DNA of 52,454 nt from Betaproteobacteria bacterium (GCA_031379405.1 JANNFC010000121.1:1-52454); one strand, 5' to 3'. Positions 21,141 through 47,834 are shown, counted from the stretch's first letter. Made by a program: numbers and translations. Notes: a model not told the origin generated them from the sequence alone.

Positions 21141-21172
21141 TGCTAAATGCGCTCAAGTCGCGAAATTTCAAG
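21141..21172 (-). promoter_or_regulatory. putative sigma-32 (heat shock) promoter for the hsp20 gene
   Basis: The minus strand reads CTTGAA-N14-GCGCATTT, versus the consensus CTTGAA-N13-15-CCCCATNT. It lies about 45 nt upstream of the hsp20 ATG. Confidence 0.45.
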
Positions 21173-21233
21173 TGTTGTCGCTTGCAATAAGCGGAACAAC
21201 GTCCTAGATTCCCGCCTTGACTCCATCGACTCT

Positions 21234-21507
21234 GTGAGGGTGGCTGCGCCCGATTCCGGTCACTCGGATCCAAAAGGTGTTGAGCGGTACCGAGACTATT
21301 TGTATCGCTACGCTTTACTTCGCCTACGCGACGAAGCGCGCGCGGAAGACGTCGTGCAGGAAACTCTGCTCGACGCTATTCAGAGCGACGCTCTTCGCTG
21401 GCAAGTCGTCCCTGAAGACCTGGCTCACCGGAATTCTCAAGCACAAGATCATCGACACCTATCGCCGCCATCCCGCCAGAAAGGATGAAGACGAGGATCG
21501 GTTGTAA
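21234..21507 (+). pseudogene. ECF-type sigma-70 family sigma factor remnant (frameshifted, lacks region 4)
   Basis: One frame gives ERYRDYLYRYALLRLRDEARAEDVVQETLLDAIQS (region 2.1/2.2). The continuation, TLFAGKSSLKTWLTGILKHKIIDTYRR (region 2.3/2.4), is in the +1 frame from about 21388. A stop at 21505-21507 follows an acidic linker. No region 4 and no anti-sigma gene follow. Confidence 0.7.
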
Positions 21508-21585: not shown

Positions 21586-21610
21586 ATCCAGCATAATAGC
21601 TCCGCCGTAT
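21586..21610 (+). promoter_or_regulatory. ATCCAGC-N13-CGTAT motif upstream of precursor gene 1 (candidate ECF-type promoter)
   Basis: Identical 7-mer and 5-mer, at identical spacing, to the motif at 23892-23916 upstream of precursor gene 2. xxATCC-N16-CGTAT has the geometry of ECF -35/-10 elements with a CGT -10 core. Confidence 0.5.
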
Positions 21611-21691: not shown

Positions 21692-22021
21692 ATGACTCGG
21701 AACAAAGCATTGACTCTCGCACTTGGCACCGCCTTCGCCGCGACCCTTGTTGCCTCCCCCGTATTGCGCGCTGCGGATAACCCCTTCGAGATGGAGTCCA
21801 TCAAGAGCGGCTTCCAGGTAGCGGACAACAAGGGTAAGGAAGGCGCCTGTGGCGGCGACAAGAAGAAAGAGGGCGCTTGCGGCGGTGATAAGGCCAAGGA
21901 CGGCGCTTGCGGCGGCGACAAGAAAAAAGAGGGCGCCTGCGGCGGTGATAAGAAGAAAGAGGGCGCCTGTGGCGGTGATAAGAAGAAAGAGGGTGCCTGT
22001 GGTGGAGACAAGGGCAAGTAA
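21692..22021 (+). CDS. secreted repeat-type RiPP precursor: signal peptide plus six KEGACGGDKK repeats (EGxCG, HvfA-like metallophore precursor)
   Basis: GGAGA Shine-Dalgarno sequence upstream. Sec signal peptide MTRNKALTLALGTAFAATLVASPVLRA/AD. Six in-frame 10-aa repeats, each with a single Cys. Lies immediately upstream of the DUF692 and DUF2063 genes. Confidence 0.8.
   Translation: MTRNKALTLALGTAFAATLVASPVLRAADNPFEMESIKSGFQVADNKGKEGACGGDKKKEGACGGDKAKDGACGGDKKKEGACGGDKKKEGACGGDKKKEGACGGDKGK
21836..22015 (+). repeat. 6 x 30-bp in-frame tandem repeat encoding K(E/D)GACGGDK(K/A/G)
   Basis: Read directly. The copies differ mainly at synonymous third positions (TGT/TGC, GGC/GGT, GAC/GAT, AAG/AAA). 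Confidence 0.95.
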
Positions 22022-22225
22022 CAACGCTTTAGGCGCTTAGGGGCCAAGGGTTGACAGAACTGGCGAAGACAATGATGCGACGATACTTTCCCCCGGGGGT
22101 CTACAAGGGGGCCACCCTCTGTTCATTCCTGGGGGATAAACAAGGGGGTGCTCCTCCTGTTCGTAGCAAGCATTTTGGCCGCACAGTCTCGACTGTCTTG
22201 GCTCCGGCGAGGCCAGCTTAAGTTT

Positions 22226-23092
22226 ATGGCCGGACCCCGGAACAACCCCGCGGGCGTGCAAGGCGCGGGGTTGGGTCTGCGGCGGGAATTGATTCCGTCG
22301 CTCAAAACCGCAGTCCCCAACGCCATCCAGTTTTTCGAGCTTGCCCCGGAAAACTGGATGGAGATGGGTGGGTCGAGCGCAAAGAACTTGCGCTTTTTCA
22401 GTGAGCGCTACCGCTTGACTTGCCACGGACTGTCGCTTTCCCTTGGCGGTCCTCAACCTCTCAATGAAGTGTTTCTCACGCGCGTGAAGCGCTTCCTGCG
22501 CGAGCACGATGTGGCGTTATATTCCGAGCACCTCGCCTACACCACGGACGAAGGTTATCTTTACGACCTGTTGCCGATCCCGTTCACGTCTGAAGCGGTG
22601 CGCTATGTCGCCGAGCGCATCAAGCGCACGCAAGACATTCTCGAACGCCGCATCGCCGTGGAGAACGCTTCCTACTACGTTGAAGCGCCGATTAGCGAAA
22701 TGAGCGAACTGGAGTTCGTGAACGCGGTATTAAGCGAAGCGGACTGTTGGCTGCATCTGGACGTGAATAACGTGTACGTGAATAGCGTAAATCACGCGTT
22801 CGATCCGCTCACATTCCTGCGTGGGTTGCCCGCGGAAAGAGTGGTCTACCTGCACATGGCCGGTCATTACAAAGAGGCGGACGATCTCCTGGTGGACACC
22901 CACGGCGCCGATGTGATCGATCAGGTTTGGTCACTGCTAGGGGTCACTTACGCCTTGTTCGGTGCCAAGCCTACGCTGTTGGAACGGGACTACAACATCC
23001 CGCCGCTCAAGGATCTTGCCCTGGAAGTGGAGCGCATCGCCCAAATGCAACGTCCGTACGCGCAGCAACAGCATGTCCGCAGCGCGTCCTGA
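22226..23092 (+). CDS. DUF692 family multinuclear non-heme iron oxidase (MNIO; MbnB/HvfB/BufB-like RiPP maturase), cassette 1
   Basis: GLGLRRE N-terminus, HGLSLSLGG, SEHLAY, VENASYY, LDVNNVYVNS, HMAGH, DTHGADV and TLLERD are the DUF692 TIM-barrel metal-ligand pattern. 288 aa from ATG 22226; the ORF track opens at GTG 22148. Confidence 0.85.
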   Translation: MAGPRNNPAGVQGAGLGLRRELIPSLKTAVPNAIQFFELAPENWMEMGGSSAKNLRFFSERYRLTCHGLSLSLGGPQPLNEVFLTRVKRFLREHDVALYSEHLAYTTDEGYLYDLLPIPFTSEAVRYVAERIKRTQDILERRIAVENASYYVEAPISEMSELEFVNAVLSEADCWLHLDVNNVYVNSVNHAFDPLTFLRGLPAERVVYLHMAGHYKEADDLLVDTHGADVIDQVWSLLGVTYALFGAKPTLLERDYNIPPLKDLALEVERIAQMQRPYAQQQHVRSAS

Positions 23093-23846
23093 ACGGCCGT
23101 CTTTCCAGCGCTATCAAGCAAGCTTTACGGCGCATATTCGTGACCCGAAGGCCAATCCCCGGCCGGCAGGCGTCAGCGCGCGGCGCATGCGTGTGTACAA
23201 CGAGTTACTGTTCAACAACGTGGAAAGCTTCCTTCTGGCGTGCTTTCCCATCACCCGAGAAATTCTGGGCGTTAGACGCTGGTCCAAGCTGGCGCGTGAG
23301 TTCTTCGCCCGTCACAAGTGCCAGTCACCGTTGTTTCGCCAGATACCGGAGGAGTTCGTCCGTTTTCTTCAATCCCGGCGCACGCTACCCATGGAACCGG
23401 TCTTCCTCGCCCACTTCGCCCACTACGAGTGGGTCGAGTTGGAGGTGGATATCTCCTCGGCAGAGCCGGACTGGGATCGCATCGATCGGGAAGGCGACCT
23501 TATACAGGGCTGTCCCGTGCTCAATGGCGCGCTTCGGGTGCTGGAGTATCCCTTCCAGGTCCATCGCATCGGGCCAAAGTTTCAACCCAAGGTGCTCGAC
23601 CCGGAGCCCACGCGCATCGTCGTATTCCGCAATCAGGACGACATGGTTCGGTTCGTCGTCATCAATGCTGTCACTGGGCGCTTGCTGGCGCTTATTTTGG
23701 AGAGGGAAGTCACCGGGGAGCAAGCCTGCCTGCAAATTGCGCAAGAGCTTGGTCATCCCAATCCACCGGCTGTTGTTGCGGGTGGCCGCGACATTTTGCA
23801 GGGACTCCGAGAGCAGGGCGCGATCCTGGGTGCTAGGCGTAAATGA
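23073..23846 (+). CDS. DUF2063 domain protein (HvfC/BufC-like MNIO partner), cassette 1
   Basis: FQ..F...IRDP, VYNELLFNNVESFL...FP and F..F....P pattern typical of the DUF2063 N-terminal domain. ATG 23073 overlaps the end of the MNIO gene by 20 nt. Confidence 0.75.
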   Translation: MSAARPERPSFQRYQASFTAHIRDPKANPRPAGVSARRMRVYNELLFNNVESFLLACFPITREILGVRRWSKLAREFFARHKCQSPLFRQIPEEFVRFLQSRRTLPMEPVFLAHFAHYEWVELEVDISSAEPDWDRIDREGDLIQGCPVLNGALRVLEYPFQVHRIGPKFQPKVLDPEPTRIVVFRNQDDMVRFVVINAVTGRLLALILEREVTGEQACLQIAQELGHPNPPAVVAGGRDILQGLREQGAILGARRK

Positions 23847-23891
23847 GCATGCACGCCGGTTTCGAAAGGTTTAATCTCCTGGGGCGAGTGA

Positions 23892-23916
23892 ATCCAGCCA
23901 GCCTCCGAAATCGTAT
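23892..23916 (+). promoter_or_regulatory. ATCCAGC-N13-CGTAT motif upstream of precursor gene 2 (candidate ECF-type promoter)
   Basis: Same motif and spacing as 21586-21610. It lies about 112 nt upstream of ATG 24029. Confidence 0.5.
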
Positions 23917-24028
23917 GTCCAGCAGGCGGCCTAGAGAGTCAAGCCCGACGATCTCTTGCGCCGTCCTGGTTAGTGTAGTGAGTACATCAGGCCTCGTCGG
24001 GCGTGATTTCCCCATTCGGAGAGAGCCA

Positions 24029-24286
24029 ATGACTACCAATACGAAACGAACCGGTGTCGCCCTCGCGGCCGCCGCCGCCGCCCTGTTTATGTCCGGTTGC
24101 GCCAGTACCGGCGGCGGCGAGAGCGCAACTGCCGCCAAAGTAATGTGCGGCGGTGTGAATGCCTGTAAGGCCCAAGGCGATTGCAAGACAGCCAGTAACG
24201 GATGCAAGGGCCAGAATGCCTGCAAGGGCCAAGGCGTCGTACAGTTGTCCAAGGATGCTTGCGTTCAGCAAGGCGGAAGGGTCTAA
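24029..24286 (+). CDS. bufferin-like Cys-rich RiPP precursor (6 Cys in the mature part) with a probable lipoprotein signal peptide
   Basis: GGAGAG Shine-Dalgarno sequence 5 nt upstream. MTTNTKRTGVALAAAAAALFMSG/C lipobox-like signal. The mature region has duplicated G-x-N-A-C-K-x-Q-G modules (CGGVNACKAQGDC...CKGQNACKGQG) and a C-terminal C..QGG. Lies directly upstream of the second DUF692/DUF2063 pair. 85 aa. Confidence 0.8.
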   Translation: MTTNTKRTGVALAAAAAALFMSGCASTGGGESATAAKVMCGGVNACKAQGDCKTASNGCKGQNACKGQGVVQLSKDACVQQGGRV

Positions 24287-24292
24287 GTCCCT

Positions 24293-24331
24293 AAAGAACG
24301 GGCTCTGCACAGGAACAGAGCCTGTTCTTTT
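24293..24331 (+). terminator. stem-loop with T-rich 3' side between precursor 2 and its MNIO gene (candidate attenuator or partial terminator)
   Basis: AAAGAACGGGCTCTG-CACAGGAA-CAGAGCCTGTTCTTT(T): a 15-bp stem with one G-U pair. The GC core is followed by TTCTTTT. It starts 7 nt after the precursor stop codon. Confidence 0.5.
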
Positions 24332-24338
24332 CCACGTT

Positions 24339-25205
24339 ATGAATCCGCCTTCCCAGTCTTTGACGCGGCCGAGCCTTGGCTTCGGGCTGGGTCTGCGCAC
24401 GGACCACTACGAGGACATCCTCAATAGCCATCCGCAGGTGGATTGGCTGGAGGTGATCTCCGAAAACTATCTTATCCCAGGCGGAAAACCGCTCTATTTC
24501 CTGGACCGAATCCGCGCCGAATATCCCTGCGTGATGCACGGGGTGTCGCTGTCCATTGGCAGTGTCGATCCTCTGGATCGAGAATACCTGATGCAGCTCA
24601 AGGCGCTCGCACAGCGCATCGAACCCGCGTGGATCTCTGATCACTTGTGCTGGACGGGGATGGCTGGAAAGAATTCGCACGACCTACTCCCGCTGCCGTA
24701 CACCGAAGAAGCTCTCAAGCATATCGCCCAGAAAGTGCGGCAACTACAAGATTTTCTTGGGCGGCGCATTCTGCTGGAAAACGTGTCGAGTTACGTGAGC
24801 TACAAGGAATCGACCCTTACGGAGTGGGAATTCCTGAGCGCTTTGACGCGGGAAGCCGATTGCCTACTGCTGCTCGACGTCAACAACATCTACGTTTCTG
24901 CCTTCAACCATCAGTTCGACGCGGAAGAGTTTCTGCGTGGCGTGCCTGCTGAGCGGGTGCAACAGATCCATCTAGCAGGTCACAGCGACTGCGGCGACCA
25001 CCTCATCGACACTCACGACGCCGATATCATCGATCCGGTGTGGGCGCTTTACGGCAAGGCCATCGAACTGCTGGGCCCCGTTTCCACCATGATCGAGCGT
25101 GACGACCACATTCCGCCGCTGGCCGATCTGGTGGCCGAATTGAGCATCGCGCGCGGCATGTTGGATAAGTCGTTACACAAGGCGCCGCAACAGGTGGCGG
25201 CATGA
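24339..25205 (+). CDS. DUF692 family multinuclear non-heme iron oxidase (MNIO; BufB-like RiPP maturase), cassette 2
   Basis: GFGLGLRTDH, HGVSLSIGS, SDHLCW, LENVSSY, LDVNNIYVSA, HLAGH, DTHDADI and MIERDD. 288 aa from ATG 24339, the same length as the cassette 1 paralog. Confidence 0.88.
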   Translation: MNPPSQSLTRPSLGFGLGLRTDHYEDILNSHPQVDWLEVISENYLIPGGKPLYFLDRIRAEYPCVMHGVSLSIGSVDPLDREYLMQLKALAQRIEPAWISDHLCWTGMAGKNSHDLLPLPYTEEALKHIAQKVRQLQDFLGRRILLENVSSYVSYKESTLTEWEFLSALTREADCLLLLDVNNIYVSAFNHQFDAEEFLRGVPAERVQQIHLAGHSDCGDHLIDTHDADIIDPVWALYGKAIELLGPVSTMIERDDHIPPLADLVAELSIARGMLDKSLHKAPQQVAA

Positions 25206-26053
25206 GCGCACTACAGACACTGCAACGCGAATTTCAGGACTTCGTCCTGGATGGCCGAGCTGAGATCGTGCAAAGAGTCGTCGGAACCTCGAGCGTCGAC
25301 CCCGCGCGCCGCTTGGGCGTTTACTACGATGCCTATCGTTTGCGGCTGATAGAAGCGCTGCAAACCGACTACACCTCCCTGAAAATCGTAATGGGCGAGG
25401 ATGACTTCGCCCAATCCATGGGCGCCTTTGTGGAGGCGACGCCATCGGTGCATCGTAATCTGCGTTGGTACGGCCAGTCTTTGCCAGAGTTCTTGCGCAC
25501 GCGCGCGCCCTCTGCGGAGCAGCCATGGTTGTGGGAGCTTGCGCTGTTCGAGTGGACCATCGCGCTCGCTTTCGATGCCGCCGATGAGCCTGTCCTGACC
25601 TTCGACGATCTGGCCGCCATGGACTCAGGAATTTGGCCATACCTGACCTTTAAATTTCATCCTTCGCGGCAACGCTTGTCACTGCGCACCAACGCCGCGA
25701 GTTTGCGCAAGGCGGTGGATGAGGAGGCGCCGATTCCCCCACCGGAACGCCTCGCGCAACCCATTCAGTGGTTGCTCTGGCGTAAGGACCTCACGGTCAT
25801 GTTTCGCTCGCTACTGCCGGAAGAGGCGTGGGCGCTGGACACTGCCCATGCCGGTGGTAACTTTACCGAGTTGTGCGAAGGTCTTTGTCAGTGGGTCGCT
25901 CCGGCGGCGGCGGCGGGCCGCCTTGCCGGGATGTTGCGCACTTGGGTGGATGATCAACTCATTGCGGCGGTGGGGTCTCCCGCGTCCGTAGGGTGCGTTT
26001 TAGGCACCGTGGCCGTGCATGCACACCTTATTGCGTCAGGGCGCGGACCGTAA
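25202..26053 (+). CDS. DUF2063 domain protein (BufC-like MNIO partner), cassette 2
   Basis: LQ.EF..FVL...., YYDAYRLRLIEALQTDY, F..FV...PS..RNLRWYG..LPEFL. ATGA start/stop overlap with the MNIO gene. The last ~25 codons read through a REP-like element and into the 3' end of the convergent gene. Confidence 0.78.
   Translation: MSALQTLQREFQDFVLDGRAEIVQRVVGTSSVDPARRLGVYYDAYRLRLIEALQTDYTSLKIVMGEDDFAQSMGAFVEATPSVHRNLRWYGQSLPEFLRTRAPSAEQPWLWELALFEWTIALAFDAADEPVLTFDDLAAMDSGIWPYLTFKFHPSRQRLSLRTNAASLRKAVDEEAPIPPPERLAQPIQWLLWRKDLTVMFRSLLPEEAWALDTAHAGGNFTELCEGLCQWVAPAAAAGRLAGMLRTWVDDQLIAAVGSPASVGCVLGTVAVHAHLIASGRGP
25988..26012. repeat. degenerate REP-like element copy
   Basis: GTAGGGTGCGTTTTAGGCACCGTGG matches the family seen at 8178-8221 (reverse complement GTAGGGTGCGTTCCACGCACCACGG) and at 11166-11189. 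Confidence 0.45.
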
Positions 26054-26483
26054 TCGCCGTCTTGAACGTCTTTTTCTTCTTGTTCTCCGAGACGATCAGT
26101 TCCAGCGCTATCTCGTCCCCTTCCTTGAGCGGTCCCTTCAACCCCAGCAACATCAAATGGATGCCCATGGGCGCCAGCGTGACCGTCTCGCTGGCCGGTA
26201 GCTCCAGCAACTTAAGCTGGCGCATGCGCATGATGCCCTCCTGCATGCTGGTGCTATGTATTTCGACTGTTTTCGCCACGCTGGTTTTCACCGCCAACAA
26301 CTGCGCTCGTTTAGGACTGGTGATCGTGAGATAGGCCGCGCCCACCGTTTGCCCCGGAACGGTGGCTCGCGCCCATCCGTCCGATATCTCCAAGGCTGCC
26401 GCGTTGGTGGCGCACAACCACAGTCCAAGTATGTAGCCCGACACCTGCGACTTCCCGATCCATCTACTTGTTCTACTTGTCAT
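26028..26483 (-). CDS. copper chaperone PCu(A)C (DUF461 family)
   Basis: Signal peptide, then DGWARAT.PG...GAAYLTI and the H(x)nM...M..HxM copper motif region (EIHSTSMQEGIMRM...APMGIHLML). The likely start is ATG 26483; the ORF track extends to 26570. Confidence 0.8.
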   Translation of the reverse strand: MTSRTSRWIGKSQVSGYILGLWLCATNAAALEISDGWARATVPGQTVGAAYLTITSPKRAQLLAVKTSVAKTVEIHSTSMQEGIMRMRQLKLLELPASETVTLAPMGIHLMLLGLKGPLKEGDEIALELIVSENKKKKTFKTAITVRALTQ

Positions 26484-47264: not shown

Positions 47265-47834
47265 ATGAAACTCACGCATTGGATTCCGGCGTTGGCAATT
47301 CTGACTCTAGGTGCCTGCTCAACCGATGAGGCACCCTCGGAGGCCGCCATCAAGGCCGGCCAAGCCGCTATCGAGGCGGCGCGCGAAGAAGCGGTGAAGT
47401 ACGCCCCCGATGAGCTCACGAAACTCGAAACCGTCCTGAAGAACGCGCAGGACAAATTTCAAAAGAAGGAGTTCACCGCAGCACTAACCGACGCCAGGGA
47501 GCTGGCAGCAAAAGCCCAAGAGATGGCGAAGGCTGCCAGCGCTCGCAAGGACGAGCTAACGCGTACTTGGGAGGACATAAATCTGGGTCTGCCGGGCGAG
47601 TTGGAGCGTATCGGCGCCCATTTCGAGAATCTAGGTCCCTCCCTTCCAAACGGGCTCGATCAGGCCAAATTGGCCGAGATCAAAGCCACATTCGCGGGTC
47701 TTGGACAACAATTGCAGGAGGCGCGTCAGGCAGCGCAATCGGGAGAGATTCCAAAGGCAGTGGACATGGGCAGTGCCGCCAGGGCTAAGGCCGTCGAAAT
47801 AGCTCAGGCCATCGGCGTTACTGAGGCGCAATGA
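47265..47834 (+). CDS. alpha-helical lipoprotein (possibly DUF4398-like)
   Basis: GGAGG Shine-Dalgarno sequence. MKLTHWIPALAILTLGAC lipobox. Ala/Glu/Lys-rich helical repeats. ATGA-coupled to the TlpA-like gene. Confidence 0.6.
   Translation: MKLTHWIPALAILTLGACSTDEAPSEAAIKAGQAAIEAAREEAVKYAPDELTKLETVLKNAQDKFQKKEFTAALTDARELAAKAQEMAKAASARKDELTRTWEDINLGLPGELERIGAHFENLGPSLPNGLDQAKLAEIKATFAGLGQQLQEARQAAQSGEIPKAVDMGSAARAKAVEIAQAIGVTEAQ

Follow-up and report, generated by a model that had tools for sequence, protein, structure and literature searches.

Among the known systems nearest to the peptide examined here are the Buf2/BufA2 (BUF_6/12Cys) bufferins, whose founding member is CCNA_03001 of C. vibrioides (PMC11626156). 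Cys I and Cys VI of C. vibrioides Buf2 form a disulfide, each of the four central Cys is shifted by -4 Da, and the signal peptide is not required for thiooxazole formation (PMC11626156). The locus that we analysed shares with this founder the six-Cys spacing, a Sec signal and a bufA2-bufB-bufC gene set without DoxX. However, whereas CCNA_03001 carries a signal peptidase I signal and is described there as soluble and periplasmic, the bufA2 product studied here bears a lipobox and ~15 additional residues of tether.

Bufferins with lipoprotein signals have been predicted before. In their survey, Leprevost et al. (Microb Genom 2025; PMC12452194) give ~16% of Buf2 bufferins as predicted lipoproteins by SignalP 6. 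The bufA2 product falls into the same class as this subset, with a Buf2 core behind a predicted lipoprotein signal, and it differs in nothing of kind; it is a further member, from a Burkholderiales clade with a convergent PCuAC gene. For two other MNIO-modified peptides, DybA (chryseobasin-like) and NedA (an oxazolin), triacylation in E. coli was established by mass spectrometry, and such products are termed DAG-RiPPs (PNAS 2026; PMC13056109). In this second paper the peptides are modified before they are exported, the MNIOs lack signal peptides, and genome mining lists lipobox bufferins and oxazolins (PMC13056109). Lipo-DybA and lipo-NedA thus resemble the present case in having a lipobox and a signal-less cytoplasmic enzyme, with Lgt, LspA and Lnt leading to a triacylated Cys; copper binding is proposed for NedA (PMC13056109). 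They differ in the peptide itself, which has a ChrH-type macrocycle or EGKCG repeats where the bufA2 product is a six-Cys bufferin with thiooxazoles expected by homology, and in the kind of evidence, since lipidation comes from mass spectrometry for DybA and NedA and from prediction for bufferins (PMC13056109). In the literature searched we found no demonstration of lipidation of a bufferin itself. A further parallel lies outside the RiPPs: Neisseria Laz, a lipidated azurin, likewise holds a small copper domain on the outer membrane by means of a lipidated Cys and an Ala/Gly/Ser/Pro-rich linker. Unlike a bufferin, Laz has an unrelated fold, is an ordinary protein and undergoes no enzymatic Cys modification.

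We analysed a stretch of 52,454 nucleotides from a Betaproteobacteria bacterium, referred to below as the window. The LipA that it encodes shares 87-89% identity with proteins from uncultured Burkholderiales and Betaproteobacteria (MAGs); the host is therefore a diderm proteobacterium and hence has Lol. The genes at the centre of the analysis are the following:

24029..24286, stop codon included, + strand: bufA2, an 85-aa BufA2-family bufferin precursor (NF050166 match).
24146..24283, + strand: bufferin core, residues 40-85, with Cys I-VI in invariant columns of alignment A1.
24339..25205, + strand: bufB, an MNIO (DUF692) bufferin maturase (NF050167 MNIO_BufB, 388.4 bits, cutoff 310; PF05114, 372 bits).
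25202..26053, + strand: bufC, a DUF2063 partner protein (PF09836, 64 bits, cutoff 27.2).

When compared with NF050166.1 Cu_RiPP_BufA2, a model named 'BufA2 family periplasmic bufferin-type metallophore', the bufA2 product scored 81.3 bits (cutoff 60, E = 4.5e-23) over residues 9-85, corresponding to profile positions 1-78 of 79. A total of 195 homologues were retrieved, the closest being a metagenomic protein with 77% identity; the best BufA2 match among species-representative genomes was 54% identical. The six core Cys form invariant columns with the spacing of the family (alignment A1, 56 sequences). The N-terminus of BufB (MNPPSQSLTRPS... / MNPPSQSLTRPSLGFGLGLRTDHY) is not hydrophobic and has no signal peptide, and there is an in-frame ATG at 24339; no obvious Shine-Dalgarno sequence was seen ahead of this gene. 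The start of bufC overlaps the bufB stop (ATGA), and its product reached only 30.9 bits against the HvfC equivalog model, under the cutoff of 142. The bufA2-bufB-bufC order recurs in relatives L002-L004, L086 and L087, and the operon has no DoxX gene. The proposal, made earlier from the sequence alone, that the peptide is a bufferin precursor is thus borne out by the NF050166 score of 81.3 bits, the BufB-type MNIO at 388 bits and the DUF2063 neighbour. Because the NF050166, MNIO_BufB and DUF2063 matches lie side by side, 24029..24286 is assigned on sequence grounds as the precursor gene heading a bufA2-bufB-bufC operon of the Buf2 type. An AlphaFold2 model built from the 56-sequence alignment was poor (mean pLDDT 61, pTM 0.35) and backs neither a core fold nor disorder of the tether, and a profile search of PDB sequences gave nothing meaningful (best E-value 0.11).

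Translation of bufA2 gives MTTNTKRTGVALAAAAAALFMSGCASTGGGESATAAKVMCGGVNACKAQGDCKTASNGCKGQNACKGQGVVQLSKDACVQQGGRV (85 aa), which can be divided into the segments MTTNTKRTGVALAAAAAALFMSGC-ASTGGGESATAAKVM-CGGVNACKAQGDCKTASNGCKGQNACKGQGVVQLSKDACVQQGGRV. The elements of the gene and its product that bear on export are:

24018..24025, + strand: Shine-Dalgarno sequence GGAGAGAG, read from the sequence, 3 nt 5' of the bufA2 ATG.
24029..24097, + strand: predicted signal peptidase II signal peptide, residues 1-23 (PROSITE PS51257-type rule).
24098..24100, + strand: TGC codon of Cys24, the predicted lipid-attachment residue (+1), a Cys invariant in the lipobox clade.
24101..24145, + strand: tether, residues 25-39 (ASTGGGESATAAKVM), running from the lipid Cys to the first core Cys.

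The sequence-only reading had described an 85-aa ORF with a good Shine-Dalgarno sequence, and both translation and the orthologues confirm this: GGAGAGAG is invariant in three orthologous loci (L086, L087 and L001) in the upstream alignment. The charged n-region, h-region, M-S-G-C and linker of that description are all present. Besides the lipobox Cys at position 24, the product has six core Cys at 40, 46, 52, 59, 65 and 78, and the two related modules occupy residues 42-50 (GVNACKAQG) and 61-69 (GQNACKGQG). Here the six Cys and both modules stood, but the length after the ASTGGGESATAA linker is 49 aa and not the 48 given before. The C-terminal motif had also been misread: it is not C-x5-GG but C-x3-GG (C78-VQQ-GG).

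Within the signal peptide, K6 and R7 make up the n-region, a 15-residue uncharged stretch (GVALAAAAAALF) the h-region, and M-S-G occupies -3 to -1. We applied our own implementation of the PROSITE PS51257 rule, which asks for a Cys at 15-35, an uncharged stretch before it and K or R near the N-terminus. ALFMSGC with Cys24 passes this rule, the ten positions ahead of the Cys being free of charge. Among 1971 candidate ORF starts in the window (at least 60 aa), only 9 (~0.5%) satisfy it, and just two of these nine, 24029 and 47265 (+), have a proper hydrophobic core. The ORF at 47265 (+) encodes 189 aa and has the sole other convincing lipoprotein signal in the window, MKLTHWIPALAILTLGAC|STDEAPSE. 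The bufA2 product does not match the strict consensus [LVI][ASTVI][GAS]C, as it has Met at -3, an uncommon residue there, although Ser at -2 and Gly at -1 fit. The twin-arginine motif is absent, and we judged the signal to be of the Sec type from its pattern and alignment. A Pfam scan of the full peptide and N-terminal fragments (E up to 10) returned no lipid-attachment-site model; such short models are uninformative. Taken as a sequence prediction, the bufA2 product appears to carry a lipoprotein-type (signal peptidase II) signal and is probably membrane-tethered when finished. It can also be placed among the DAG-RiPPs, defined in PMC13056109 by a precursor with an SPII signal beside a modifying enzyme that has no secretion signal.

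We then turn to relatives of the peptide, which give weightier evidence for the lipobox than does the match to the pattern. Syntenic orthologues read FMSGC|ANTG (L086), FAAGC|ANTG (L087) and FMAGC|ASPG (P0001), so that the Cys and a Gly or Ala at -1 are retained despite diverged n- and h-regions. The 42 lipobox relatives span Betaproteobacteria, Thiotrichales-type Gammaproteobacteria, Francisellaceae and Kofleriaceae. Of these, 37 have G and 5 have A at -1, all have one of A, S, T and G at -2, and 33 carry F at -4. Position -3 is more varied (I/L/A/M/V/T), with I, L or V in 29/42 and Met in 5/42, and +2 is A in 29 and otherwise G, S, T or a single E, with Asp in none. The codons of the lipobox Cys over 18 loci are TGT (10) and TGC (8); the use of both is the pattern expected under selection on the amino acid, and retention of the Cys across relatives argues further against a chance lipobox. 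Seven Cys are the usual number in lipobox forms, against six in most SPI forms. The tether is always 13-25 residues long in the 42 relatives (median 18; A 20%, G 15%, S 15%, T 11%), whereas in SPI-type relatives a rough heuristic estimate puts ~4 residues from the likely point of cleavage to Cys I of the core. That the signal is of the lipoprotein type, as the sequence-only reading had it, is therefore supported by the PS51257-type rule, by conservation of the Cys with both codons in use, and by the tether in lipobox relatives.

In non-lipobox relatives the aligned positions -4 to -1 read F-x-[S/T/A]-[G/A], the place of the Cys is taken by A, P, T, S or G, and the hydrophobic region runs on to an ordinary AxA signal peptidase I site. 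The ordinary signal peptide of the family is thus already most of a lipobox, and this near-lipobox state may be a reason why lipoboxes occur in several distant taxa. These include Methylotenera, Pseudomethylobacillus, Burkholderiales MAGs, Thiotrichaceae, Cocleimonas, Francisellaceae and Kofleriaceae. We claim no number of origins for this distribution: a neighbour-joining tree of the 48-residue core suggested up to 17 state changes, but so short a sequence does not yield a trustworthy tree. Two members of the family are unusual. The lipobox BufA2 P0021 has a His-rich tether, C|ATKTRHHEHEHGHADAGMVH, which may be an additional metal-binding segment. A Cocleimonas MAG (L022, 4989-6100) has three tandem bufA2 genes, two with lipoboxes (LLAGC|SS and LLAGC|GG) and the third with an ordinary signal, an arrangement that, judged by sequence, resembles a natural combination of anchored with soluble bufferins within a single operon.

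A survey of bufferin precursors for lipoboxes, suggested together with the original description, gave an overall frequency of 16-19%. A lipobox was present in 13/84 BufA2 genes from the 80 best loci of species-representative genomes, and counting one further gene whose start is mis-set raises this to 14. When 1.84 billion cluster representatives were searched with a profile (E up to 0.001), 2604 belonged to the family, and among the best 145 of these 2604 representatives with a recognisable core 27 (18.6%) had a lipobox. These counts agree with the ~16% given in PMC12452194. When the top 150 family representatives (P0241-P0296 included, a sample biased towards high scorers) were divided by architecture, lipoboxes were found in 13/19 two-domain bufferins (11 or more Cys; the 12-Cys forms) and in 15/131 single-domain ones (Fisher p = 3e-7). 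We saw no mention of this enrichment in two-domain bufferins in the passages of the literature consulted. In public records, the lipobox members P0018, P0003, P0005, P0010 and P0012 are named 'periplasmic bufferin-type metallophore' (NCBI) or 'uncharacterized membrane protein' (JGI), and the lipoprotein prediction is therefore missing from current product names.

Whether the gene begins at 24029 bears directly on the signal, since a mechanical ORF list runs the frame from an ATG at 23843 to 24286 (147 aa), and were this the true gene the apparent signal peptide would be internal. We give this next to no credence: the extension begins within the end of hvfC and has no homologues, relatives are 80-90 aa long with the same start Met as 24029, and the DNA 5' of the conserved Shine-Dalgarno sequence and ATG aligns as non-coding with indels. 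The start at 23843 was accordingly rejected on homologue lengths and conserved start signals. Given the start at 24029, the product might still be an ordinary soluble periplasmic bufferin, cut by signal peptidase I near G-C-A|S-T or downstream and not lipidated, with Cys24 lost along with the signal peptide or left as a free thiol. Counted from Ser26, G falls at -3 and A at -1, as the (-3,-1) rule asks, the Ala at +2 in 29/42 lipobox relatives would create this alternative site there too, Met at -3 is atypical of a lipobox, and NCBI calls both the family and its lipobox member P0018 'periplasmic bufferin-type metallophore'. Yet a Cys shed with the signal peptide would not be selected, and this one is invariant across divergent lipobox relatives with both codons in use and absent at the aligned position from the 39 SPI-type sequences of alignment A1. 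The AxA site of SPI-type relatives lies ~8-12 residues further downstream, the long Gly/Ser/Thr tether is found only together with the Cys, and the share of lipobox forms equals the SignalP 6 lipoprotein share in PMC12452194. We therefore regard a soluble, unlipidated product as unlikely.

The final location of a lipidated product is a separate matter. Lipoproteins without a retention signal go to the outer membrane by default, and Asp is absent from +2 in all 42 lipobox BufA2, where A, G, S and T dominate; both points favour the inner leaflet of the outer membrane over retention in the inner membrane or a place on the cell surface or vesicles. However, the +2 sorting rule was established in E. 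coli and is specific to it, other Proteobacteria using +3 and +4. In addition, PMC13056109 gives four possible destinations for lipopeptides and suggests vesicles for related ones. A destination other than the inner leaflet of the outer membrane is accordingly a possibility to be kept in mind, if the less probable outcome.

The joint reading that we favour, a BufA2 bufferin precursor with a signal peptidase II export signal that reaches copper chelation at the membrane by a five-step route, appears to us quite probable as a whole. In this scheme bufA2-bufB-bufC would be transcribed from its own ECF-type promoter, and a stem-loop after bufA2 would favour precursor over enzyme transcript. Cytoplasmic BufB and BufC would then convert Cys46, 52, 59 and 65 to 5-thiooxazoles, as expected by homology to C. 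vibrioides Buf2. Thiooxazole formation does not depend on the signal peptide (PMC11626156), so exchanging one signal type for another poses no mechanistic problem. After Sec export, Lgt would add diacylglycerol to Cys24, LspA would cut between Gly23 and Cys24, and Lnt would N-acylate the new terminus, steps to which the lipobox and its conservation point. The resulting triacylated lipopeptide of 62 residues would consist of a flexible tether of ~15 residues and a folded core closed, by homology, by a Cys40-Cys78 disulfide. With Ala and not Asp at +2, it may be carried by Lol to the outer membrane, on the side of the inner leaflet; this extrapolation of the E. coli rule is the weakest step. Copper would finally be chelated at the membrane and not free in the periplasm, again by homology.

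The proposed transcriptional steps draw on two elements flanking bufA2:

23890..23916, + strand: promoter-like motif of the ECF-sigma type, GAATCC-N16-CGTA(T), 113 nt 5' of the bufA2 start codon.
24293..24330, + strand: stem-loop of 15 bp with a short U run, in the bufA2-bufB intergenic region.

The string ATCCAGC-N13-CGTAT has exactly two copies in 52 kb, at 21586-21610 and 23892-23916 (+), where 0.15 would be expected by chance. The first copy lies 82 nt before the start codon of a second precursor gene (precursor 1, below) and reads ACATCC where the bufA2 copy has GAATCC. In an upstream alignment of the window with L086, L087 and L001, the motif is retained by L087 and almost fully by L086. 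Its form resembles that of an ECF-sigma promoter; if it is one, the two copper-peptide operons would be co-regulated, as the shared motif suggests. A simple sigma-70 promoter scan found nothing 5' of bufA2, and no part of the window matched Rfam at gathering thresholds. The remnant of an ECF sigma gene (21147..21507, +) lies between hsp20 and the first RiPP operon, reduced to region 2, with a frameshift near 21380 and region 4 missing. The stem-loop folds with -24 kcal/mol (z = -5.8; 0/200 shuffles as good) and is terminator-like on both strands. It is likely a partial terminator or mRNA stabiliser, a role that would suit an excess of precursor transcript over that of the enzyme. By eye, L086, L087 and L002 have hairpin-capable, sequence-unrelated intergenic DNA at the same place.

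The other copy of the motif precedes a second operon:

21692..23846, + strand: second MNIO operon, directly 5' of buf.
21692..22021, + strand: oxazolin-like precursor 1, 109 aa, with an SPI-type signal (…VLRA|AD) and six EGACGG repeats.
22226..23092, + strand: hvfB (NF003818, 410 bits, cutoff 360).
23073..23846, + strand: hvfC (NF050145, 279 bits, cutoff 142).

The repeat of precursor 1 has a 30-nt tandem period with 5.7 copies and compares with the published oxazolin motif EGKCG; no NCBIfam or Pfam model matched this precursor. On the other side of the buf genes lies a further copper gene:

26028..26483, - strand: PCu(A)C copper chaperone gene (PF04314, 113 bits), convergent with bufC, the 3' ends overlapping by 26 nt.

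A PCuAC gene is adjacent in 4/16 lipobox loci (L021, L030, L086 and L087, all Burkholderiales-type) and in 0/67 SPI-type loci. In two close relatives the buf genes are degraded to the 3' part of bufC, or to the end of bufB and a bufC fragment (L085, 5679-6254; L088, 3-1061). Their LipA is 87-88% identical and the site is the same, from argB/hsp20 to PCuAC/dacC, and PCuAC persists. The remnants therefore indicate that the copper-peptide island was gained or lost between near relatives. Since PCuAC was kept where buf decayed, its adjacency may be synteny by descent and not a functional link, and the chaperone may not belong to the buf system.

It is very doubtful that the lipid anchor marks a functionally separate bufferin class, whether as a membrane copper station exchanging with PCu(A)C or for surface or vesicle display, alongside the soluble oxazolin-like peptide under the shared ECF-type motif; the lipobox enrichment in 12-Cys bufferins would fit a distinct membrane-bound subclass. 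The idea of a lipid-anchored bufferin is supported by this locus but is not new: it is already in print, predicted for bufferins and demonstrated by experiment in two other families of MNIO peptides, and bufA2 adds one member to a predicted class. The value of the present analysis is confirmatory, providing an independent lipobox frequency and evidence of selection on the Cys, and the locus could serve as a test case for bufferin lipidation and final location. If the favoured reading is true, the same organism would have one membrane-held copper-binding RiPP and another, from the adjoining operon, free in the periplasm, and the bufA2 product would be a small natural example of a signal-peptide swap that re-targets a natural product.
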